From: a virus
Strand: one strand, 5' to 3'
DNA: 64,000 nucleotides
IMG/VR virus record: IMGVR_UViG_3300031087_000015
Location: 1 to 64,000 of that record
Below, piece after piece: positions 22,513 through 55,547 of the stretch; positions within the stretch are counted from its first letter, which is position 1, and each line of letters opens with the position of its first letter. The translations under genes were made by a program, and so were the position numbers. The notes under the pieces were generated by a model. The model saw nothing but the letters and a program-made list of their open reading frames with translations. It did no database searches and was not told the DNA's origin.

Positions 22513-24525
22513 TTACAGATCGGGTAAATAAATACGATCCATTGGATGCGACGGGCGTTCAGGGTTAAGGAAGCTATCGATGTTCAACAGAGTCTGACCA
22601 TGCTTCTCAAACGCATAATCCACGGTCATACTACGGTTGTTCATCAACTCTTTAAACGGCGCAAACTCACGCGGTTCTTCTGGATGTGGGAAACGATAAT
22701 CGCCGGTCTTAGCATCACGTACCAGACACACCGCCAAGATCAACTCACAGTGTGCAATGTTAAACGTAAAGCGTTTGTTAACCGTATCGTGTAGCTCCAC
22801 TACCAGCGCCGCCAGCTCGTCCTCAGAACGGGCCATTTCTTTTGCACGTTTGTCGCGACGACGACGTAGACGCTTGAACTTGATGATGTCAGCAACCTCG
22901 GCCATAAACTCCAAGGTGTTGATGTTCTTCAGCGGCAGTTCGAAGACTGGCTTGCTGAAATCCCAATCGCTGAGATCAATCTCATACCCGCGCCCTTCTG
23001 TAGCCGACCATCCCTTACGCTTGATATACGCAAGGAAAGCCGTAGTGAAGGAACTCTTACGAGAACCCACAGCCACAGATACGTCAAGAGCTAACCGGTC
23101 TTCCGTACCCAGGTCGTCAAAGGTCAGTGTAACCGACTCGATCTCTGAAATACGAGTGATTGGTAACACGGTCAGATCTTTAACGTGGTTGAGTTCAGTC
23201 AGGTTAAATGCATCAGTCTGACTGACGGTCATGATGGTGTGACGAGTTGCCAGATTAGGGTTGAGATTAATCTGACTTTCTTTCTTACCGTTGACCAAGA
23301 ACGCACGATCACCTTCACTGATGAAGAACGGTTCAATAGATGCACCGCTATCCAAGTGCTTAGTTGACAACACGTTCTGTGATACACCAGAACAGAGTTC
23401 GATTACAGACAGGTGGCCTAAGTTAGCACCATCTGGAATCTGTAACGAGATCTCACCCAGACACGCCTGACACACGCCCTGATGTGGTAAGCAACGACAC
23501 CCTAATGGGCTGCGCACATACACACGTTGACCCAGCAGGTGTTTATCCGCAGTAGTGATGCGATGTAGGGTAGGTGCGGTACCCGGCGCTTCTTCTACGT
23601 AATAATACTTACCTTGATAGGTCTTCAGGTCAGCAGAGGTTGTCATTGTCAATGGCAGCATGATTGTACTACCACAGTCCCCTTTAAAGAGGTGACGCAA
23701 ACTCTGTGCTAACAGCTGAAGCTGACGGTTCAGATACTCTACTTCAGCCAGCGGATCTTTTGCAAAGAACAGTGCCTTAGAAGCAGATCGTGATTCGATG
23801 GCATAGTCATGCAAGCGATGCATGCCACGAGCATAACCAGCCATCATTGCGTGGGGGAAGACGTTGGAATCGATATCCGTTACGAATCGATGTCCACCGA
23901 ATATCTGGTTCTGCTGTCCTGCTGAAACCAAACCGGATTTGGCCGATTCCGCAGGACGGTTCCCCACCAGTTCTCCTTCACGGGTGAGAATACTCTGTAC
24001 TACGCGACTGATGTTTGCAATGCTGTTCTGAGTAGGCACTGCTTTTGACAGGGCATCTACCAGTTCAGGGTGTCGCAATACATCGATGAAGTCCTTAGCC
24101 GAGATACTGGTCACGTATGCCGGTAAGCGATACACGATTTCGTTATACAAAGTGTTAGTTACTTCATACGCACAGAGCTGAAGATCATTCAGACTCACCG
24201 AACCCGAATACGTATCCCACACCGACCAGAATGCGTTTCCGATCATTTGCAGGGACGTACCTTTATTAAGGCGAACCTTTGGGTCCATCAGATGCTCAAC
24301 TAATAACGGCGTTTCCGGATAGCGCCGATGGAACTCCCAGAAATACTGGGAGAGTATTAGTTCACGACCGGTGGTTTGTACAATGCCGTTATCGAACTTA
24401 ACGTTGATCTTAAACTTGGGCTGGTCGAACTTAGCCCAAATTGCATCTGTTGGCATTTTCAATAGCTCACGAGCTGGATAAGCGTCCGCTATTCCAACTG
24501 ACGACTCAACAAGAGCTGTTGTCAT
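22513..24525 (-). CDS. Non-virion RNA polymerase beta' C-terminal subunit (phiKZ gp74-like)
   Basis: ESRSASKAL bridge helix, GDCGS, RSPLGC...GVCQACLG, SQNVLSTKH. Confidence 0.88.
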   Translation of the reverse strand: MTTALVESSVGIADAYPARELLKMPTDAIWAKFDQPKFKINVKFDNGIVQTTGRELILSQYFWEFHRRYPETPLLVEHLMDPKVRLNKGTSLQMIGNAFWSVWDTYSGSVSLNDLQLCAYEVTNTLYNEIVYRLPAYVTSISAKDFIDVLRHPELVDALSKAVPTQNSIANISRVVQSILTREGELVGNRPAESAKSGLVSAGQQNQIFGGHRFVTDIDSNVFPHAMMAGYARGMHRLHDYAIESRSASKALFFAKDPLAEVEYLNRQLQLLAQSLRHLFKGDCGSTIMLPLTMTTSADLKTYQGKYYYVEEAPGTAPTLHRITTADKHLLGQRVYVRSPLGCRCLPHQGVCQACLGEISLQIPDGANLGHLSVIELCSGVSQNVLSTKHLDSGASIEPFFISEGDRAFLVNGKKESQINLNPNLATRHTIMTVSQTDAFNLTELNHVKDLTVLPITRISEIESVTLTFDDLGTEDRLALDVSVAVGSRKSSFTTAFLAYIKRKGWSATEGRGYEIDLSDWDFSKPVFELPLKNINTLEFMAEVADIIKFKRLRRRRDKRAKEMARSEDELAALVVELHDTVNKRFTFNIAHCELILAVCLVRDAKTGDYRFPHPEEPREFAPFKELMNNRSMTVDYAFEKHGQTLLNIDSFLNPERPSHPMDRIYLPDL

Positions 24526-26708
24526 TTAAAGATCCCCTTAGCGCGTTTGCCTAAGCTACGCATGCTGATACCACAGCACCACATGATGTGTTTGATGAAT
24601 TGGATAGCACGGTTACCACCCAACGGCACTTTATTACGATCAACAGCCAGCTCAATTTGGGCAGGGTTCTTAGCTTCCAGAATACTACGAACTTCTGCTT
24701 TGTGTGCAGCTGGGTTGTTCGGACGATCCAGAAGGTCAGCAACGACATAATCTGGGACCAATGCCAGCAGGAGCCGAATCTCTGCTTCACCAGTAATACG
24801 AACGGCGTTCTCACGACCAGGAGTAGAATGCTTGTCCATATTCGTCATACGAGCAAGGATACCGAAGTGTTGGCGTTTTGGTGACGCAACAGAACTCCAG
24901 TCAAAACCATTCTTCTCCAGCATGATGATGTAGGTCTCACCGATCAACATCTTCTGCTTGGTTGTGGTAAAGTTGCCATTAGAGTCACGATACGTAACCG
25001 GATGCATCTCCAGTCCATATCGCTGCTCCAGGCGGTCGATGATTGTTGCGCCGATATCCTCAGTGTGTGGCGGAAGCCACAGATAGATTCCATCTTGACA
25101 AACGGCACCTACATGACTCTTGCGATATTCCGGGACACTTGAAATCTCACGACGCATTAGCTCGGCCATTAACGGACTAGCAATGCTGTAATATTCCATT
25201 AACTCGTCATATGCCTGGTCTACGAGGTTCTGGTTGTTCAGCGAACCACCTACGCCAGCCATGGCTACTACGCCCTGCACACCCATGATCTCACGAACAC
25301 GTCGTGTCATCTGAGCACCAAAGGCATTCGTTGCCTGTTCGAACACACCGCCTAAGTTCATCCTTTTGATGTTGGAGTCATTATCCATCACCAGGTCAGC
25401 GGTTGTACCGTCTGGCCACTTAGGCATATCTTCAGGTTCACGAATCTGTACAATTACGCCCTTACCACCGTGCATGGTTGTAACTTTAGAACCGACTGAA
25501 GGGATGATGTCATATTTGAACACAATCTCAGTACGGAAGTCACCCACCGGTGCACGGCGATATGTCATGTTGACACGAGCGCCATCTGGCTGTTGAACCG
25601 ACTTATGGTTAGTGAAGGCATATGCCCACACAATCATCCGATGTAGATTCGGATGCAGAATGAGTTTCTCACCATGTTGGCGTTTCAAAGATTCATACAG
25701 ATCGATCAGCTTGTTTTGCTGGGCGAGTAAAGTTTCGTAATAGCGACGACTCTGCTCATCAATTCCTTTTGGTGTTTTCTCTTCATTATTCACACGGTCC
25801 AGATTATGGTCGTGGAATACCGTGACGTCGATAACTTCTGCGCCAGGCTTACCATAGACCAGTTGGTCAAAGATATAGTCTGGTTCAGCCAACGCCTTCT
25901 CAGTCATATCAACTACAGCCAACAGCTCGTCATACTCGCGGATAGCATAGACGATGCCGTGTGGTGCGATCTTCTGACCGATCTCGGGGTGTGCCCTGTA
26001 AACCCCATTGGAGCTATAAAGACCGATAGGATAACAACGATTACCCCACGTACCCACACGCGATTCAATGCCTACCGATTTGTAGCGCTCCAACCACGCA
26101 CGGTTTGCTAACACACCATCCTCAATGGTTGTATGTAGCGACATGTAAATCATTTTAGAACTAACGCCGGTTCGATAGTTACCAAACTGATCGATAGATG
26201 GACTGGTTGCAATAACCATACCTTCTTCAGCTGGACCATCTTCTACCAGCATCGACATTCTGTTGCCCTTCGGTTTATACATAAAACCAAAGTACTGATG
26301 TCGGATGTTATACGTCGACACGTCCATAACACCAAAATATGCTTTGTTAGGATACTTTGGATTGTTCGAACGATAGACGGCAAGCTTTTGTGGATTATAA
26401 CTAAAGCGATAAGCACCTTGGGTTGGATACTTATCGATGACGCGAATGAAACGACCTTCCTCGGGTATTTTCTGTTGGAATGTATAACGACCGTATTCCC
26501 GCTCTACACCAGTCAGGGTACGGCGAACACTTGGGTCTGCAATTACAGGCACCTGAGACAGATGACTGGTATACATCTGTGCACGAGATGCTGAATCATT
26601 TGCGGCCCACGGGTTAGTATTCGACCCGCCACCTAGGTTGTTGACGTGGAGTTCATTGGTCTTCCCAACGATTGACTCTACCCCAAACAAATCACTGTGC
26701 TTTTCCAC
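24522..26708 (-). CDS. Non-virion RNA polymerase beta C-terminal subunit (phiKZ gp71-73-like), uninterrupted
   Basis: DSASRAQM..SHLSQ, IEDG, GSKVTTMHGGKGVI, KRMNLG, RITGEAE; GTG start with GAGGAG SD. Confidence 0.92.
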   Translation of the reverse strand: MEKHSDLFGVESIVGKTNELHVNNLGGGSNTNPWAANDSASRAQMYTSHLSQVPVIADPSVRRTLTGVEREYGRYTFQQKIPEEGRFIRVIDKYPTQGAYRFSYNPQKLAVYRSNNPKYPNKAYFGVMDVSTYNIRHQYFGFMYKPKGNRMSMLVEDGPAEEGMVIATSPSIDQFGNYRTGVSSKMIYMSLHTTIEDGVLANRAWLERYKSVGIESRVGTWGNRCYPIGLYSSNGVYRAHPEIGQKIAPHGIVYAIREYDELLAVVDMTEKALAEPDYIFDQLVYGKPGAEVIDVTVFHDHNLDRVNNEEKTPKGIDEQSRRYYETLLAQQNKLIDLYESLKRQHGEKLILHPNLHRMIVWAYAFTNHKSVQQPDGARVNMTYRRAPVGDFRTEIVFKYDIIPSVGSKVTTMHGGKGVIVQIREPEDMPKWPDGTTADLVMDNDSNIKRMNLGGVFEQATNAFGAQMTRRVREIMGVQGVVAMAGVGGSLNNQNLVDQAYDELMEYYSIASPLMAELMRREISSVPEYRKSHVGAVCQDGIYLWLPPHTEDIGATIIDRLEQRYGLEMHPVTYRDSNGNFTTTKQKMLIGETYIIMLEKNGFDWSSVASPKRQHFGILARMTNMDKHSTPGRENAVRITGEAEIRLLLALVPDYVVADLLDRPNNPAAHKAEVRSILEAKNPAQIELAVDRNKVPLGGNRAIQFIKHIMWCCGISMRSLGKRAKGIFK

Positions 26709-26756
26709 GTAAGCTCCTCACGACTACGCTACCACTGTTTATTACTTAGCCCTTTA

Positions 26757-26772
26757 ATAATATGTATTTCAA
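26757..26772 (-). promoter_or_regulatory. Putative early promoter of nvRNAP beta gene
   Basis: TTGAAATACATATTAT, a copy of the recurrent motif. Confidence 0.65.
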
Positions 26773-28642: not shown

Positions 28643-30079
28643 TTAGCGGTAAGATACCGTGTTGATGTTTTCCATCAGACCCTGGATATCGCGAGCGATA
28701 ACACTGCGCTTGTTGGCATCCAGAGTGGCGATTGGTGTAGTCAATGCATCACACCACTGTGGGTTCTGGTAAGGCACCAGCGGACCACCGTTCAGGGATA
28801 TCTTGATTTCAGTATCGCCTAACAGATCACAGTATACTTCGAGGTGAGCCAACATCTGGTTACCGAAAGTGATACCAGCCATCAGTTCAGTTGCAACGCG
28901 ATGACAGAACGACTGAACTGCATCACGCATGTACGACTCATCCTGAGACAGAATCTTAGCAAAGCTCTGTGCGTCATGTACGATGATGGTATACGGCGTA
29001 CCGTTGTTTGGGTTAGGCATGTCGTTTGACATGGTAACAACCATCTTGGTAAACTTACCATCGTTCATCAACGTAGGCAGGGTACTTGCCACCATACGTG
29101 CAACAACGGTTTCGTTGGACACAGTATCCCAGTTCTCACTTTCACCACGACGTGCAATGAATGTATCGTGAGATACTGCAACACCACGGTTGAACGCTAC
29201 GTGAGTTGCGTTTTCCAGATCTGGGCGGAAGCGCAGCAGCTCACCCCAGGACACGCCATGACGATGCGACATATCGGTATTGTTCAGCAAGGTACCCAAT
29301 GATGCTAACTCATAGGGGTTGCGGTCTGCTACAGTTGCCTTAGCGGTTTTAAGTACGCTAGACATGTTCGCATCCTGCACGCTCGCGGAACTCAGTGCCG
29401 TTTTATACCCGCTCATAACGCGAGAGAGATAACTACCACTGTGGTTATTAGCGCGGTTAGACAGACGCGGTCCATCCAGTGCGATATTACGTGAATCGAT
29501 CGTGCGAAGATCACGGGCATCAGCAATGCCACCCAGTGCTGTAGTCAGACCGATACCGTCGAAGATATCCTGAGGTGCCAGATAGAACTGGTTTACCTCA
29601 CGACCCGGATTGAAATACCCCGGCATTACCTGGTTAGACTCACGGATATGCAGTCGCTTCTGAACCTGGCCATTTGGACCAATGCGATCCATCACCGTTA
29701 CCGATGTGATGCTGTTGATGAACAACATCATGTTCGGGTCCATTGTTTCGCTGCGAGTGATACCCATGTAATCGGTATACCCACTCAGGATATCAACCAG
29801 CACATTGCCGTTGGAAGATACCTGCTCAATCTCCATCATAAAGCGAAACTTCGGTTCGTTCCAACCATTGACGATGTTAACGCTTGCCTCAACTTTGGCA
29901 GACGGTCGCATAATCTCTGAACCCACAACAGATAGAGCTGGTACTGAAAGGTTTTCGCCAAGCTCAGTGGCGTGCTGAAGTTTAGCCAGGCTGTCTGCGC
30001 TAACACGAGTACCGTAGCTTGCTGACCACATGTCGTTGTAGGTACCGGTCTCTGTAAACAATACGCGACGAATAAACAT
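28643..30079 (-). CDS. picA: Probable phage-nucleus protein importer PicA/Imp1 (phiKZ gp69-like)
   Basis: 478 aa, directly downstream of the gp68-like gene in the conserved core block; assignment is mainly by synteny and size. Confidence 0.6.
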   Translation of the reverse strand: MFIRRVLFTETGTYNDMWSASYGTRVSADSLAKLQHATELGENLSVPALSVVGSEIMRPSAKVEASVNIVNGWNEPKFRFMMEIEQVSSNGNVLVDILSGYTDYMGITRSETMDPNMMLFINSITSVTVMDRIGPNGQVQKRLHIRESNQVMPGYFNPGREVNQFYLAPQDIFDGIGLTTALGGIADARDLRTIDSRNIALDGPRLSNRANNHSGSYLSRVMSGYKTALSSASVQDANMSSVLKTAKATVADRNPYELASLGTLLNNTDMSHRHGVSWGELLRFRPDLENATHVAFNRGVAVSHDTFIARRGESENWDTVSNETVVARMVASTLPTLMNDGKFTKMVVTMSNDMPNPNNGTPYTIIVHDAQSFAKILSQDESYMRDAVQSFCHRVATELMAGITFGNQMLAHLEVYCDLLGDTEIKISLNGGPLVPYQNPQWCDALTTPIATLDANKRSVIARDIQGLMENINTVSYR

Positions 30080-31650
30080 TATTCCTGTACTCCTGCTTTA
30101 TGATTATTAAGTTTGATGATGAACGCCGCTACCTGCACTTTGAAGTCCGAGGGAATCAGATGACCACCGGAGCGATACGGACGCATGGTGACTTGTGCCA
30201 AAAGTTCCTGTGGTGCATTGAGCAGATAAGGACGACCGTCAAATAGCGAAAAGAGTTTTTCTATCGCTATCATCGCAGCATTCTCAGAACGCTGCTGTTC
30301 ACCGGTATCTTTCTTTCCACTACTCCTTCTGTGGTAGAAGGGATACTGTTCTTTCAAGATCCGGAATTGCTCGTTTGTTACACGACTACGGGTATCCGTT
30401 CCGAAAACCATATCGTCGTCCATAATAGAAGGCTCAGCTGTTAATAAAGACGCCAAGTCGTAGAAGCCCCAGTGCCAATAAAGCGCCTGTGCTAATCCTA
30501 TCATGTTCACACGCTCTGGTTGTTCCAGGGCTGGAATGAAACGCGCTTTCAACGCAGCGTCAACTGCCCACTGCGTCAGCGCAATCTGACCATCGGTTGG
30601 CAGATATCCGTTATTGCGGCGCAAGTGGCCAACACACGCATCGACCATATCCATCGGTAGTGACGGATCAATAAGACGCCGTGCGTTTGCAACACCCTTT
30701 GCGTACTTCCATGCCAGCAGAAACTTATAGTCGTTGATCTGCTGCTTAACGATTATTTTCTCAGCTTGTGATTCCTTATCGTCATCACGATATTCCATCC
30801 CGTCCGGCTTCTTACGCACCTGACCATCAAACTTACGGTCAAGGCTAGTCAGGGTGGTTTCGATCTGACGGAAAATGTTTGAAACGATGTTAGTGCTTGA
30901 GTTGTACTGAGAGAACAGTTGACCATCTGGCCTTCTGTGCATTACAACACCGACACACACCTTTCGAATGAGTACTACACCAAATACCCAATCTTCCAGC
31001 TCAGCACTACCGATACCTGCGACGATTGCAGACATGGTAATCTTGGCTGTATCTACGTTCATGCGAACATAGCGTTGGAGCTTGTCATAGTCTGCGGTAT
31101 GAATCAGCTCCGTGTGATTCATCAGACCCATTGCCATGAACTCTTTGAAGTGAGTTCCTGACGTTTTCTTAGATTCGCGTACGAATAAGTTCCAGATTGG
31201 AATCATCGGACGCAGTGCTGTAACGAGACAGATTAGCCCCATGTAGTCGTCACGCAGATACGTGCGGTCAGAACTACTGTACTCACCCATCGCCGTTTGT
31301 ATCTCGTTTGGCACGATGATATTACAGTGCAAACGGACAAAGCGCGCAAGGTCAGCATATGACCAGCAACTGTACAATTCAGCAACCAGAGCCACTACGC
31401 GCTCGTGCAAACGAACATCGTTAAACGTCGTTAAGAACGCTTCTTCGATATCCGAATAGATACGCATGATACGATCTTGTACGTCATCAGGTAACGTACC
31501 CCAGAATGCATTGATGTCCATAAACAACTCACCCGTCGACGGGAAAGGTGTGCGGTCAAAGATGCTCCCCTCAGAGACAATTCTTTTCCCTTTATGCTCA
31601 ATGACAATGCCGGTCAATTTATCGCTATTGTCTAGCGGATAGATCTCCAC
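30079..31650 (-). CDS. nvRNAP promoter-specificity (sigma-like) subunit (phiKZ gp68-like)
   Basis: 523 aa, GTG start with GGAGGT SD, own early promoter, synteny. Confidence 0.7.
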   Translation of the reverse strand: MEIYPLDNSDKLTGIVIEHKGKRIVSEGSIFDRTPFPSTGELFMDINAFWGTLPDDVQDRIMRIYSDIEEAFLTTFNDVRLHERVVALVAELYSCWSYADLARFVRLHCNIIVPNEIQTAMGEYSSSDRTYLRDDYMGLICLVTALRPMIPIWNLFVRESKKTSGTHFKEFMAMGLMNHTELIHTADYDKLQRYVRMNVDTAKITMSAIVAGIGSAELEDWVFGVVLIRKVCVGVVMHRRPDGQLFSQYNSSTNIVSNIFRQIETTLTSLDRKFDGQVRKKPDGMEYRDDDKESQAEKIIVKQQINDYKFLLAWKYAKGVANARRLIDPSLPMDMVDACVGHLRRNNGYLPTDGQIALTQWAVDAALKARFIPALEQPERVNMIGLAQALYWHWGFYDLASLLTAEPSIMDDDMVFGTDTRSRVTNEQFRILKEQYPFYHRRSSGKKDTGEQQRSENAAMIAIEKLFSLFDGRPYLLNAPQELLAQVTMRPYRSGGHLIPSDFKVQVAAFIIKLNNHKAGVQE

Positions 31651-31688
31651 ATCAAACCTCCATTACTTACGCTAACCTTTACACTAAG

Positions 31689-40931: not shown

Positions 40932-42425
40932 TTAATCTTCCCCGTACAGCCAGTTAGCAGCTGTGGCCAGGATAGGTGCCGGTATCGTGATGTTACCGGA
41001 TATCTTACGTGGTTGACCTACATCCAACACACCTACGTGTGGGCGCAGTGGTTCCAACATACGACGCATGTAACGGTCAGTAATCAGCTTACCGTTGAGT
41101 GCATCACCATCGAAGTCTGCGTTGAAGCTGACCAGGATAAGCACGGAGATGCCGATCGTTACATCTTTCAGGTCTGTCTTCACTTTCGTGATTTGCAGTA
41201 ACTGAATGGACTTAGACGACAGGGTTGGGTTACGGTTCAGCAACATGGCTGGACCTTTGTCATCTGAATCCGCGATGATCTTCTTAAAGAGGTCATCAAT
41301 CTCCTGGTCGTAGTGCATGGTTGCCCAGTGCAGACGCCGTTCGATCTCATTAGGGTTCAGGCCCTGTGCAGTGAGGTAGTTAGCAATGTGTACCGTAAAG
41401 ATACTCACAGCCAGACCCCATGGTAAATGTACTTCTTCGTAATGGTGCGGTTCAGTGATTGAACTGATTACAGCACGGAACGAGAAGTCTTGGCGTGAAC
41501 CAACACCATGTTTACGGTTCCACCCGCGTTTGGTACCCAGGGAGTCACGGAACTGAATAGCATAATAGCTAGACAGTTGTTTAACCGCTAACACACAACG
41601 GTTCTCACACTTTGTCTGTGAGAGTGGCATTGGTGTAGCACGGATACTGGCGATAGATCGAACTGCATCCAGCGCTGTGCCCGCTGGCGTCTCATTGGAA
41701 TACGTACCGGTTGGGGTATGCTCCATGACAATAGCCAGTTTATTGGGTATCGGTAAGAACTTACAGAATAACCGCGACCGGTTCATCTGAATGAACTCAC
41801 GCATCTTGACACGCATACCTGGCGCGATAGAACGAATGGTTTTACCGTCTGTCAGCAGCTCCATAATCCCATCGAAGTTCTCAATGAAATTATTCAATCC
41901 GCGACGGAAGGGTTCGCCGTTACGCATAGTGTATCCCTGCATGATGTCGAACACTTGCAGGTTATCGCTTTGCGGTCTGTAGCTAGAACTAACCAGCCAC
42001 TCTAAAACGTTGTTGCCGCTGAAGGTTAACAGCTTTGAGAATATCGCCCAGAAGACCGGATTGATTAAACCATGCACCCCCTCAGGTGCTGCAATCCAGA
42101 CATTCGATTCTATCGGTCTCTCTGTGGCAGGGAGTACCATATAGGAGCAGTCTTCGCAGATCTTACCAACGAAGCGTTCGCCTTTCCATTTACCACAGTC
42201 ACAGGACGGCAGTATTGGCAGCGTATCGCCTTTGTAGTTGGTAATCAGTAGTGCGTTGAGCTTCTCTTTCCCTTCAACGGTAGAGGAATCAATGTCGTTA
42301 ACAATAGTCGGACGACAAGACAGCAACGTGATTTCTTTATCGAAGTCCGTTACTTCTTGACTGATGCCGTACTCAATGGGAAGTGAATCCGCATTGATTG
42401 TTAACATAAAGTCTCTTACGCGCAT
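40932..42425 (-). CDS. Non-virion RNA polymerase beta' N-terminal catalytic subunit (phiKZ gp55-56.1-like), uninterrupted
   Basis: Catalytic NADFDGD, NRNPTL, RQDFSFRAVI, Zn ribbon CDCG...CEDC; SD GAGGT. Confidence 0.93.
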   Translation of the reverse strand: MRVRDFMLTINADSLPIEYGISQEVTDFDKEITLLSCRPTIVNDIDSSTVEGKEKLNALLITNYKGDTLPILPSCDCGKWKGERFVGKICEDCSYMVLPATERPIESNVWIAAPEGVHGLINPVFWAIFSKLLTFSGNNVLEWLVSSSYRPQSDNLQVFDIMQGYTMRNGEPFRRGLNNFIENFDGIMELLTDGKTIRSIAPGMRVKMREFIQMNRSRLFCKFLPIPNKLAIVMEHTPTGTYSNETPAGTALDAVRSIASIRATPMPLSQTKCENRCVLAVKQLSSYYAIQFRDSLGTKRGWNRKHGVGSRQDFSFRAVISSITEPHHYEEVHLPWGLAVSIFTVHIANYLTAQGLNPNEIERRLHWATMHYDQEIDDLFKKIIADSDDKGPAMLLNRNPTLSSKSIQLLQITKVKTDLKDVTIGISVLILVSFNADFDGDALNGKLITDRYMRRMLEPLRPHVGVLDVGQPRKISGNITIPAPILATAANWLYGED

Positions 42426-42460
42426 TTAGACCTCACATACAAAAATAGAAAGGCGGACAT

Positions 42461-42506: not shown

Positions 42507-44702
42507 TTACTGACCGTACCAGATGTTGCCAGACTGTGGTGCAGCCGGACCACGGTTGCTACGAGCCGGAGAGCTGTAACCGTAGGTGGTCAGGTTGTTC
42601 TGAGGCTTAGCGCCCTGGCCGAATTCGTTAGCGTAAGAGAACGCCATACGATCGTCACCACGCGCAACACGGTCAGCTTCAACCACGTTGATAGTAGTGC
42701 CACATTCAGCGATTGCGTTAGCCAGCGCGTACAGGAAGTGTGCGTTGAAAGTGATACGGTTAGCGTAACCAGTGATGGTTGCGTTAGGTACCAGCTCCAT
42801 GATGATCTTCTCACGCTCTTCCAGAGACAGCGCTTCGTTACCGTTGTAGCTCGCCATCGCATTAGCCCATTTCTGAGCAATGGTGCTGCCGTTCTTACCG
42901 GTCTGGTTCAGAACTGCCAGGTGGTCGATGTTACGCAGGTCAACCAGCTGATCGTTGTCCGGATAGTGACCCAGGTGTACGCGGGTTACTTCGTTTGCAA
43001 CAATCTTGTTGTTCTCACCGAAGTGGCGAGAGAACGCATTGCCGGTCAGTGCATCAGCAGCACGACGGATGTACGAACGAGCAGCTTCACCTTCAGGACC
43101 TTTGTCCGCACACGCCAGCAGCGCAGCTTCCATCCAGGTCAGGTCGCCAGCTTCTTCGATATCCATGCTGTACAGCAGGTTATCTTCCACAGTGTGGTTC
43201 AGGAAGTCAGGCAGGTTGAAGGATTTATCCTGAGTATCGATCTTAGCACGCTGGCCAGGTACGAACTCATGCTCGTAGCCCAGAGCACCGATGTCGTGAA
43301 TATCTTCGACGCCGCGCTTAGGCTGGAACGCATTGATCCAGTTGTAGTTAGAACCCAGAACAGTGGAGGTCGCCAGAGTCAGCAGCATTTCGCCGACGTT
43401 GATGACTTTGCCCATTGGACGGTTACGCGTGATGACCATGCGTGGGAACCATACTACTTTCGCATTCTGCGGAATGCCGTAGCTTGCGTAGGTCTGCTGA
43501 CCGTTGTTGTCCATGCGAGGTGGTGCGTACACCAGATCGATAAACGCGGCCAGTGCAGTTACCGGACGGGTAGCTACGTTCTGAGTCAGGTTGGCAGTCG
43601 CTTTGTTGCCAGAGCGAATGGTAGTTTGCAGCACTACGTCAGAACGGATTGGCAGACCAGCTGCGGTTTCCATTGCGCGAGCACCCCAGACAGCCTGAGC
43701 ATGCAGAGTCTGTGCGATCTTCTCGAAACGACCATCACCCAGAGGTTTAACCAGGCTCAGGAATTTCTGAGAACCGAAGCGCACGTCAGCGGCGGTGTTC
43801 AGTGCACCCAGTGCGAAGAACAGCAGGTTACGAACGTACTTAGCGTTTTCCGGATCTTTCAGGTCCAGAGACTTAGGTACGACGTTAACGCCGGCAGACA
43901 GTACTGCTTCTTTGGTGTTCAGCACGCGCTGGACGTGGCTGGTGATCAGCTGCGCTACCGCATCGTTGAAGATATCGCCGGTTACAGATGCGATCTGGAT
44001 GCTGTAGTTGCCCATGTTGTAGCTGCGACGCTCCAGCGGCTCTGCGCTTTCCATCAGCAGGGTGAATAGCAGTGGGATACGACGACCGTCTTTCTGTGCG
44101 TGCATTACAACACCCAGGGCGTTGCATGGCAGACCCAGAGTTGCCGCTTCCAGAGTCAGGAACATCGGCTTACCGTATGCGCCTGATTTAGAGCTGGCCG
44201 GATCGTTGTCGATGATGTTCTCAGCGATCTTCTTGAACTCGTTGACGTCTACCGCGCCAGAGTTCAGACCCAGCGTACGATCCATGTTGCTGTAAGAGTC
44301 ATCCAGACCGTAAGTTCCGAAGTTCTGTGACATGTTCTTTTCCTCTTTATATGTGTTCTGAGTGTTTTGTGATGCTACGGGTGCCACGCGAGCGGGCTGG
44401 ATTGTTTCGCGGTGTTGACGCGCTGGTTCAGCATGCGGAGTGTGATGTTCCGCACGGTCTACCAACACACCTTCCACTGGTTGGGGTTCTTTCGGTTGCT
44501 GTTGTGCAGCAGCCTTCTGCTGATTGAGATTAGTAGCCGTTTTGACTACAGTCTCCGCCAGATGCGTTTCGCTATCTTTAGCTACCGCATCAAGAAAAGC
44601 TGAACCTAAGCTGCCAACGTGTCCGGTGTCATCAGACTTAATTGGCTCTTCAACTTTCGGCTTTTCAGATTGGTCTTTATCTTTATCGTGGACAAGTGCC
44701 AT
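42507..44702 (-). CDS. chmA: Chimallin, major phage nucleus shell protein; alternative start at 44333
   Basis: Immediately upstream of nvRNAP beta'N; motifs FPRMVIT, DIEEAGDLTW, VHLGHY...DLRNIDHLAVLN; strongly biased codon usage; TATATTAC promoter. Confidence 0.85.
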   Translation of the reverse strand: MALVHDKDKDQSEKPKVEEPIKSDDTGHVGSLGSAFLDAVAKDSETHLAETVVKTATNLNQQKAAAQQQPKEPQPVEGVLVDRAEHHTPHAEPARQHRETIQPARVAPVASQNTQNTYKEEKNMSQNFGTYGLDDSYSNMDRTLGLNSGAVDVNEFKKIAENIIDNDPASSKSGAYGKPMFLTLEAATLGLPCNALGVVMHAQKDGRRIPLLFTLLMESAEPLERRSYNMGNYSIQIASVTGDIFNDAVAQLITSHVQRVLNTKEAVLSAGVNVVPKSLDLKDPENAKYVRNLLFFALGALNTAADVRFGSQKFLSLVKPLGDGRFEKIAQTLHAQAVWGARAMETAAGLPIRSDVVLQTTIRSGNKATANLTQNVATRPVTALAAFIDLVYAPPRMDNNGQQTYASYGIPQNAKVVWFPRMVITRNRPMGKVINVGEMLLTLATSTVLGSNYNWINAFQPKRGVEDIHDIGALGYEHEFVPGQRAKIDTQDKSFNLPDFLNHTVEDNLLYSMDIEEAGDLTWMEAALLACADKGPEGEAARSYIRRAADALTGNAFSRHFGENNKIVANEVTRVHLGHYPDNDQLVDLRNIDHLAVLNQTGKNGSTIAQKWANAMASYNGNEALSLEEREKIIMELVPNATITGYANRITFNAHFLYALANAIAECGTTINVVEADRVARGDDRMAFSYANEFGQGAKPQNNLTTYGYSSPARSNRGPAAPQSGNIWYGQ

Positions 44703-44758
44703 CTTTTCATTCCTTAAACATTGCAATGTTTTCGGTTAGTCCTATACCAACCACTAAG

Positions 44759-51553: not shown

Positions 51554-52000
51554 TTACTCCTCTTCAGGCATCTCCGTGCCAGTCAAGCGATACCATTCCA
51601 TCACACGATAATCCATGCCCTTATTAAGCAGAAGATCACCAGCGCATTCTGTTACAGACCAAACAAACCAGGTATAACCGATGTAGTTAACGATAGGTTG
51701 TTTGACGAATACGTAATAGATGTCATCTAACACCGCAGCCCGGAACTCGTCAATCTGCTCACCCTGAAACCAAGGTAAACGATCGACTAAGTAATCTTTG
51801 GCTTGTGTGGAATCGGCAGCCCAGTGCATGAGCGTATTCAGGTAATCGTCGGTAGCCAATGCACCCCATTTCTCGCACTCCTCACGAGTGAGTGGTGTAA
51901 GATGTTTGTATTGGCACCAATGCAACTGCTTAATGTAAAACGTTGCTGTTAGTCGAGTCAAGTCAATCAACAAACTCGACACGTTATTATCATCACCCAC
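51554..52000 (-). CDS. Hypothetical protein, small-gene array
   Basis: 148 aa, GTG start with GAGGA SD. Confidence 0.65.
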   Translation of the reverse strand: MGDDNNVSSLLIDLTRLTATFYIKQLHWCQYKHLTPLTREECEKWGALATDDYLNTLMHWAADSTQAKDYLVDRLPWFQGEQIDEFRAAVLDDIYYVFVKQPIVNYIGYTWFVWSVTECAGDLLLNKGMDYRVMEWYRLTGTEMPEEE

Positions 52001-54281: not shown

Positions 54282-54778
54282 TTAATGCTCCCTATTTGCC
54301 GGCATTCATCCAGCAGGATATCGAAATTAATGGGTTCGTGGGTTTTAGTAATAGCTGCTGTCTTTGGCGCAAACGAATCCGTACCAAAGACTAGACCGCT
54401 TTTAACATGAACATTGGGGCGGTATGTAAATATCCACCTATCTCCAATGGTAATATATATCCCACGTTTTAATGGAACGTTCCTGGCGCGGTTGGCACCA
54501 AAGCCCAGCTGACCGTCCTGGTACCATACGAGTTCGTCATTATGGCACTCGGCGTATTTACGCAGGCACATCTTAATCAGACCATCGCGTCGCCACTTAT
54601 CGGCGTAGTCACCTAACCCAAACAAAACCACCGAGTTCTTAAAAGCAGCAATAACAACATCACCGTATACGTGGTATTCTCGAGTTAGGGTTACAATGGC
54701 ACCGCTAGATGTTTCCGCCGAAATCTCCCTCAGAGACCCGCACGGTATCATTGACAGGGACACTGAGCTTTTCGCCAT
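54278..54778 (-). CDS. Hypothetical protein
   Basis: 166 aa; start uncertain. Confidence 0.55.
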   Translation of the reverse strand: MAKSSVSLSMIPCGSLREISAETSSGAIVTLTREYHVYGDVVIAAFKNSVVLFGLGDYADKWRRDGLIKMCLRKYAECHNDELVWYQDGQLGFGANRARNVPLKRGIYITIGDRWIFTYRPNVHVKSGLVFGTDSFAPKTAAITKTHEPINFDILLDECRQIGSIK

Positions 54779-55376
54779 TTTCGTCTTTTTCCATTTTGAT
54801 CAACATGTTGTACGCCAGAAATGCGCGGGTCAACATCGCCTCGCGCTGGTAGCCGTTGCCAGGCAAGTAAGCCGTAGCCGCACGGCGGATGTGCTCACAC
54901 AGTGGTGTACCTTCACCCCACCATTTATAGGCTTCGATGCTTGCCTCTAATTCTTCATCAGTGAAGTGGTGTTTGGGGGAGAGCTGCATTACCACACTGA
55001 GATCGTTCAGGTAACCCAGCACACCATGATCGGTATAGAGATGGTCCGGGATATCCATCAGTCCCGTACCAAGACTGATTACTTTCGAATAGGTAAGTGC
55101 TCTCACTACTTCGCTTTTCATCAGGGTGAACTGAAGAACGCTATCGAATTTCAGGACTACAATGTCGCCAATCCAACTGTCCTGAACATCGACGTCGATA
55201 TCGCGATCAACCAAACCCATCGCTGACAGCAACCCGTTAAGGTATTCGCGCACCGGAGTTACACGAATATAACTCTCTGGCAGTTCGTAGCTCAATTCTT
55301 TCGATTCGTTAATGATGCCTTGAACTAACTCAGCCATTTTGCGCTGGATCTTTAAGTAATCTTCGTTGGTTTCCAT
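54705..55376 (-). CDS. Hypothetical protein
   Basis: 223 aa with AAGGA SD. Confidence 0.7.
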   Translation of the reverse strand: METNEDYLKIQRKMAELVQGIINESKELSYELPESYIRVTPVREYLNGLLSAMGLVDRDIDVDVQDSWIGDIVVLKFDSVLQFTLMKSEVVRALTYSKVISLGTGLMDIPDHLYTDHGVLGYLNDLSVVMQLSPKHHFTDEELEASIEAYKWWGEGTPLCEHIRRAATAYLPGNGYQREAMLTRAFLAYNMLIKMEKDENGEKLSVPVNDTVRVSEGDFGGNI

Positions 55377-55399
55377 TTTGGTTCCTTAATTGAGAAAGG

Positions 55400-55508
55400 G
55401 CATAAGGGGTACCCAATTAAGGGTACCCCTAGCGGCAGCGTAAGTAATGGAGGTGAGGGTCAGCGCGTGAGGTCGCTTTACTGCAATTGAGGGATTACAG
55501 TTTTCTCC
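55400..55508 (-). ncRNA. Candidate trans-acting sRNA 'sR55' (antisense to nvRNAP subunit RBSs)
   Basis: Promoter AAAAAATTAC with 20 nt to the G of TATG; two hairpins with CCUCA loops; 18-nt perfect complement of the gp68-like RBS; terminator 55405-55430. Confidence 0.72.
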
Positions 55509-55547
55509 ATATAATACAGGCATTTATGTAATTTTTTACAAACTGGG

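Follow-up and report, generated by a model that had tools for sequence, protein, structure and literature searches.

Can a nucleus-forming phage use one small RNA to control the translation of several subunits of its own RNA polymerase? The question is raised by the leader of the nvRNAP beta half in the window analysed here (64,000 nt in all), which covers the opening 64 kb of an IMG/VR contig of 142 kb (IMGVR_UViG_3300031087_000015) with an estimated completeness of 52%. A sequence-only reading of this window had proposed that an RNA, sR55, matches the leaders of three nvRNAP subunits (gp68-like, beta and beta'-N). The coordinates and strings that it gave are all correct, and the analysis below partly supports its multi-target interpretation; the coordinated shut-off of three translation starts that it put forward is less well supported than it claimed.

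The source is a phiKZ-like, nucleus-forming phage (chimallivirus), with a chimallin gene at 42507-44726 on the minus strand. The phiKZ nvRNAP comprises the counterparts of the subunits discussed here together with gp123, and its gp68 touches gp71-73 and gp55 (PMC8287921). Lineages are labelled A (the window phage), P (Erwinia phage pEa_SNUABM_54, pEa54) and B, C, D, E, F and H. The closest cultured relative of A is pEa_SNUABM_54, with about 70% amino-acid identity in beta, while B and H are close relatives: B is represented by a pair of IMG/VR contigs tiled along the window phage with about 80% identity, and H is a 271.7-kb ENA contig whose sRNA is identical to sR55. A megablast of the region against GenBank phages returned no match, neither the 223-aa neighbour nor the gp123-like protein retrieved a related locus, and IMG/VR pattern scans with the terminator and the loop recovered phage B alone, besides chance hits.

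sR55 is a predicted minus-strand RNA of about 107 nt (55402..55508; ends inferred). It folds into a closing stem (5' GGAG with CUCC), hairpin 1 (55480-55501; loop CCCUCA), hairpin 2 (55462-55477; loop ACCUCACG), a seed predicted to be single-stranded (55430-55462) and a terminator hairpin (55405-55428) with UUAU on its 3' side. The folds confirm that CCUC(A/C), CCTC(A/C) in the DNA, occurs four times, twice in predicted hairpin loops, as had been claimed. Homologues were found in six lineages, and P, B, H, C, F and E carry the RNA at the syntenic position. The RNAalifold consensus of six lineages contains 21 pairs, seven of them changed on both sides (compensatory); hairpin 1 holds four of these seven and the terminator the other three. 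The 5' closing stem GGAG/CUCC is seen in individual folds and takes the form GUAGAG/CUCUGC in P. Between A and P, nucleotide identity in the sR55 region is 71% and amino-acid identity in the flanking proteins about 30%. Several stem positions are G-U pairs in some lineages; the opposite strand would have A-C mismatches there, so the minus strand is favoured. The element is non-coding, with no ORF conserved across the lineage sequences: the overlapping 45-aa ORF at 55386-55523 lacks a Shine-Dalgarno sequence, and ORFs starting at the ATG of TATGG run to 10, 24 or more than 39 codons, and to one codon in pEa54. Judged by these sequence comparisons, sR55 is a genuine conserved, structured RNA element.

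An Rfam search with sR55 gave no match at E <= 1. Two raw RNA sequencing runs yielded no reads over it, and wastewater contigs of possible RNA origin are probably DNA. In strain X4, which is 98.7% identical, sR55 is unchanged and the 18-nt match is kept, zero changes in about 150 nt being not significant. In relative D (Logan ERR9974861_4, L133 1-9800 and 15650-15717; proteins about 70-74% identical) sR55 is missing from the syntenic place and the gp55-like leader is without GUGAGG, a motif present in all sR55-bearing lineages. The opposite (+) strand within sR55 carries a sigma-70-like TTGAGG-17-TATAAT at 55487-55515 (10/12), a type of match whose count is not above chance.

Upstream of sR55 lies a promoter-like element (55509..55540, minus), GTAAAAAATTAC, followed after about 19 nt by the G of TATGG. 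This region includes a 17-nt block identical in pEa54, and TGTAA-W-rich-TTAC and TATGGAGAAA are retained upstream of sR55 in lineages C, E and F. The phiKZ middle promoter has been described as an A-rich run plus TAC(T), placed about 22 nt before the start of transcription (PMC8244752), and the upstream element fits this description. Conservation extends to the promoter-like motif and to the terminator hairpin, and compensatory changes occur. The ATG of the next gene (55376) follows 28 nt after the end of the terminator. At the level of sequence, sR55 has the marks of a phiKZ-type 5'UTR-derived ncRNA, namely a promoter and a terminator within the next 5' UTR and a length below 250 nt. It would be transcribed from the middle-type promoter and end at the hairpin terminator; since the promoter is middle-type, the RNA is presumably made by nvRNAP. 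As a separate observation, terminator hairpins on the gene strand directly precede a conserved TTATG (window 55401-55405 and 42455-42459, and all sR55 homologues), which could represent a terminator fused to a TATG-type (late) start, as before the gp55-like gene.

For target prediction, genes were called by a simple script and ribosome-binding regions (-45 to +15) were scanned using 24-nt duplex windows and opening energies; unrestricted duplex folding of the full sR55 gave absurdly long duplexes and was discarded. The primary predicted target is the leader of the gp68-like (sigma-like) nvRNAP subunit (30079..31650, minus; 523 aa), a gene identified by 24% identity over 96% of its length to phiKZ-type nvRNAP-subunit proteins and by synteny. 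Its site (31656..31674, minus) comprises 19 bp including the Shine-Dalgarno sequence, a match reached by 0 of 1500 shuffles. Among the ribosome-binding regions ranked by predicted pairing, the gp68-like leader is first and the beta leader second both in A (of 198) and in B (of 218). An accessible seed is thus complementary beyond chance to the distant gp68-like region; for beta the evidence is borderline, p ranging from 0.007 to 0.13. In lineage C the seed and the gp68-like leader show a compensatory U-A to C-G change. An apparent gp68-like covariation between A and pEa54 was rejected as alignment-dependent, the non-cognate RNA scoring about equally. sR55 lies on the same strand as its predicted targets, 24-29 kb away, and is not cis-antisense to them.

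The beta half (the 'beta-C' of the sequence-only reading) is phiKZ gp71-73-like and is encoded at 24522..26708 on the minus strand (728 aa, GTG start; phrog_3295, 1e-202; tblastn hits annotated gp071-like). The 12 bp with two G-U pairs claimed for its leader are found between TACGCTGCCGCT (reverse complement of 55431-55442) and AGTGGTAGCGTA (reverse complement of 26725-26736), and a third G-U extends the helix to 13 bp (26724-26736). The whole predicted site spans 26713..26736 (minus): after the helix, with its three G-U pairs, comes interrupted pairing across GAGGAG (26714-26719). In the best duplex a 2-nt bulge is followed by pairing of the same RNA stretch across this Shine-Dalgarno sequence, giving 21 pairs in total, a hybrid energy of -28.3 kcal/mol and a net energy of -16.8 kcal/mol after accessibility costs. 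The hairpin-2 loop CCTCACG is likewise complementary, as claimed, to CGTGAGG at 26716-22, adjoining the GTG start at 26708. An early-promoter-like CATATTAT (26757..26764, minus; compare the recurrent ATATATTAC/T motif; transcription start inferred) lies upstream of the leader, so the sR55 site would fall within the predicted beta 5' UTR. A second, promoter-proximal 8-bp seed match occurs in the same leader at 26745-26752 (minus), UAAGUAAU with AUUACUUA, and lineage C has an analogous site (AGGCGUAG) in another register; whether the two lie inside the mRNA depends on the transcription start.

Compared with dinucleotide-shuffled seeds, the contiguous-helix score of the beta match has p = 0.007-0.009 and its hybrid energy p = 0.029, and the accessibility-aware energy, with the seed shuffled inside the intact RNA, has p = 0.13. 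The last value is only 0.13 because the G-rich leader pairs with almost any C-rich RNA: shuffled seeds average about -13.8 kcal/mol on it, a stickiness that stems partly from the intact hairpin-2 loop meeting CGUGAGG. Five sites genome-wide reach the helix score of the beta match, three of them in coding regions, and the only ribosome-binding regions at that score are the gp68-like and beta sites.

The beta site is kept in the close relatives B and H, and in phage B a G-to-A change converts one of its G-U pairs to A-U. In C, F and pEa54 the beta leader is weak (p = 0.18-0.25 each) and pairs in a different register. On the pEa54 beta leader the phage A RNA and the RNA of pEa54 itself pair equally well, so cognate specificity for beta is not clear, and the rank product of the beta orthologue pair alone is not significant after correction for 132 pairs. 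The gp68-like (31665-76) and beta leaders have GGT(T)AGCGTA(A)GT in common, as the sequence-only reading had noted, and this likeness of the two leaders means that the beta and gp68-like matches are not independent observations. The further argument that deviations compatible with G-U favour pairing between RNAs carries little weight, since a pair of transitions will both be compatible with G-U in a quarter of cases. Taken together, the sequence comparisons place the beta match moderately, not overwhelmingly, beyond chance, and support beta as the best predicted sR55 target in A besides the gp68-like leader. That beta is a target in A could go either way, and multi-target regulation by sR55 is plausible.

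The beta'-N half is gp55-like (40932..42425, minus; 497 aa; phrog_2987, 1e-146). Pfam RNA_pol_Rpb1_2 hits its orthologue in H, where the gene is just downstream of chimallin, as in A. Its ribosome-binding site, (U)GUGAGGUC (42429..42437, minus), is complementary to the hairpin-2 loop. The exact complementarity claimed for the loop is present, GACCTCAC (reverse complement of 55467-55474) facing GTGAGGTC (42429-36), which sits 3 nt before the ATG at 42425, but the match is not above background in A. Of the 198 regions in A, beta'-N ranks 12 with accessibility, where the pairing falls on another site (+2 to +11), and hybrid energy puts it at 25; p is 0.09 for the accessibility-aware energy, 0.18-0.22 for the helix and 0.79 for hybrid energy. 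Comparison of lineages adds that loop 2 and this ribosome-binding site co-vary: loop 2 is GACCUCAC in A and GCCCUCAC in C, E and F, and the ribosome-binding site is GUGAGGUC in A and GUGAGGGU in those three lineages, which amounts to a single compensatory A-U to C-G exchange. In the sister lineages E and F it is the seed that lies on the beta'-N Shine-Dalgarno sequence, with 15 bp (p = 0.001) and 14 bp (p = 0.013), and the beta'-N leader ranks 2/33 in E (fetched loci only). Directly 3' of the shortened gp55-like gene of lineage E (449 aa) is a 439-aa gene (L134 17162-18481) with a faint HNH hit, which may be a homing-endonuclease insertion. The 9-nt match of loop 1 at 526-534, also noted from the sequence, is present.

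Two further subunits complete the comparison. The gp74-like beta'-C half (22513..24525, minus) is probably translationally coupled to beta, since its ATG overlaps the beta stop (ATGA, 24522-24525). Its leader shows no sR55 pairing of its own (combined p = 0.98), an internal negative with a Shine-Dalgarno sequence of comparable strength. The remaining subunit, for which the sequence-only reading had proposed a check of the same kind, is gp123-like: its leader ranks 1/324 in pEa54, with 11 bp over the Shine-Dalgarno sequence and GUG start, and its p combined across lineages is 0.06.

At the level of the family, pEa54 ranks among 324 regions are 1 for gp123-like, 7 for beta, 14 for beta'-N, 28 for gp74-like and 32 for gp68-like. 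Seed helices of at least 8 bp occur in four of the five pEa54 polymerase leaders and in 24 of the 324 leaders overall (hypergeometric p = 1e-4, shuffle p = 0.007). Among fetched loci only, lineage C ranks gp68-like 2, gp55-like 4 and beta 5 of 59, and lineage F ranks gp68-like 2/47. Every lineage has at least one nvRNAP leader in its top two predicted targets, and the rank-sum of four polymerase leaders in A is no better than that of shuffled seeds. Helix p-values combined across lineages are 1.6e-5 for gp68-like, 4e-4 for gp55-like, 0.018 for beta and the values given above for gp123-like and gp74-like, all of them optimistic, as the lineages are related by descent and the choice of some thresholds and motifs came after the data had been seen. 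The polymerase leaders carry rare motifs complementary to sR55: GTGAGG occurs in 6/198 ribosome-binding regions, two of them polymerase, and TAAGTA in 3/198, again two polymerase, enrichments that are descriptive only since the motifs were picked after seeing the leaders. The result that would have counted against the sequence-only reading, nvRNAP leaders scoring no better than other GAGG-containing sites, was therefore not obtained. The pairing is retained in B and H, compensatory pairs join the seed to gp68-like in C and loop 2 to gp55-like in C, E and F, and the beta pairing weakens and changes register in C, F and pEa54.

Some genes outside the polymerase also rank high. The ribosome-binding region of the DNA polymerase (phrog_2927, start 48240) ranks 4/198 in A, and the DNA polymerase leader of lineage F (L137 10001) ranks 1/47 (-18.7); it is not high in C, E and P. 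The leader of a second DNA-polymerase-like gene (start 9785) contains AGCGTAAGT. A 148-aa gene of unknown function (51554-52000, minus; pEa54 217442-217918) ranks 7 in A and 2 in pEa54 and has the best rank product, tied with beta.

We regard it as evenly balanced whether sR55 is a trans-acting base-pairing small RNA of a small Erwinia-type chimallivirus clade, acting on polymerase-subunit leaders. Its seed and C-rich loops would base-pair with the ribosome-binding regions of early nvRNAP-subunit mRNAs. In A the main target would be the gp68-like mRNA, through 19 bp across the Shine-Dalgarno sequence, and the second would be beta, through a 13-bp helix immediately 5' of the Shine-Dalgarno sequence and broken pairing over it; gp74-like would follow through translational coupling to beta, and the hairpin-2 loop may also contact the beta'-N ribosome-binding site. 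Such pairing would block 30S binding, so that nvRNAP would feed back on, shut off or balance the production of the subunits it consists of. The gp68-like and beta genes stand behind early promoters (TATATTAT/C type); with these and the middle-type promoter of sR55, feedback would be the simplest model. A tentative extension, which we hold at somewhat below even confidence, is that the nvRNAP-made sRNA provides feedback on split-subunit translation while its target set drifts, from gp68-like and beta in A to beta'-N in E and F and gp123-like in pEa54.

A narrower explanation, unlikely but to be taken seriously, is that sR55 acts in trans on one real target, the gp68-like mRNA, and that the beta and beta'-N matches are by-products of shared leader ancestry, strong GAGG-type Shine-Dalgarno sequences and a C-rich sR55. 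The gp68-like leader alone is significant by every measure, and in nearly every lineage; the score of shuffled seeds on the beta leader, the null rank-sum in A and the weakness of beta in C, F and pEa54 point the same way. But the beta helix of 13 bp, placed upstream of the Shine-Dalgarno sequence, is itself unlikely (p ~0.01), and the gp74-like leader is unpaired despite its comparably strong Shine-Dalgarno sequence. The 14-15 bp pairing of E and F seeds with beta'-N, the co-variation of loop 2 with the gp55-like site, and pEa54, where gp123-like is at the top and gp68-like only at rank 32, likewise speak against a single target.

It is improbable that sR55 acts only in cis, as a 5' leader or attenuator of gene 54705-55376 that arises through premature termination like that in phiKZ 5' UTRs, with the distant complementarities being relics of an inverted duplication of a leader fragment. 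The order of promoter, structured RNA, terminator and gene is that of the phiKZ 5'UTR-derived ncRNAs (PMC10914365), and a duplication could yield the exact 18-nt inverted repeat. However, the seed is single-stranded in the predicted fold and does not pair with the AAGGA ribosome-binding site of the downstream gene, seed and polymerase leaders change together across lineages, and D lacks both the RNA at the syntenic place and GUGAGG in its gp55-like leader. Least probable is that the leader motif is the operator of a protein regulator or a promoter-proximal element, with its complement present in sR55 for another reason, for example as a decoy, or that host mRNAs are the main targets: the leaders do have rare motifs in common and non-polymerase genes reach the top 10 (the DNA polymerase at 4 in A and 1 in F, the 148-aa gene at 7 in A and 2 in pEa54), but a protein would not be bound by the complement of its operator, and the motif is not promoter-linked, given that it stands behind two promoter types, early (gp68-like, beta) and terminator plus TTATG (gp55-like).

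As a trans-acting RNA, sR55 would have a mechanism of a known kind in a new circuit. The 5'UTR-derived ncRNA candidates of phiKZ, found by ONT-cappable-seq, are structured and shorter than 250 nt, and their targets and functions are not known (PMC10914365). They resemble sR55 in their chimallivirus origin and in being bounded by a start and a terminator just upstream of a gene; they were detected as transcripts, whereas sR55 is a predicted RNA, and the likeness is one of layout. Staphylococcal RNAIII and RsaE-type RNAs also present CCUC/UCCC in loops and linkers against several Shine-Dalgarno sequences and have many targets. They are unrelated in sequence (no Rfam hit) and host, and the likeness is confined to mode of action; the main pairing of sR55 is a long single-stranded seed of 13-19 bp, in contrast to the loop kissing alone of that comparison. 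DsrA, RprA, ArcZ and OxyS, which act on rpoS, are host-encoded, Hfq-dependent, mostly activating trans-encoded sRNAs of enterobacteria. Like sR55, with its sigma-like gp68 target, they pair in the 5' UTR of an mRNA for a transcription-machinery subunit; unlike them, sR55 is encoded by a phage, is predicted to cover the Shine-Dalgarno sequence and ends in no more than a UUAU tail. The phage RNAs OOP, aQ, sas, 24B_1, VpdS and PreS, almost all of temperate phages and either cis-antisense or host-directed (PMC12197685), share with sR55 a phage origin and base-pairing regulation of phage or host genes. Among the phage sRNAs listed in that 2025 review, none comes from a jumbo phage and none has an RNA polymerase target (PMC12197685).

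If the proposed role is true, sR55 would, as far as we could find, be the first phage sRNA aimed at the phage's own transcription machinery, and a drifting target set would mean that selection acts on repression of the complex and not on any single mRNA. The cultured relative pEa_SNUABM_54, an Erwinia phage, can serve for experiments. Nucleus-forming phages keep transcription apart from translation, and the question addressed here is how the timing and balance of five separately encoded polymerase subunits are set; sR55 with its predicted polymerase-leader targets offers a concrete, testable post-transcriptional circuit.
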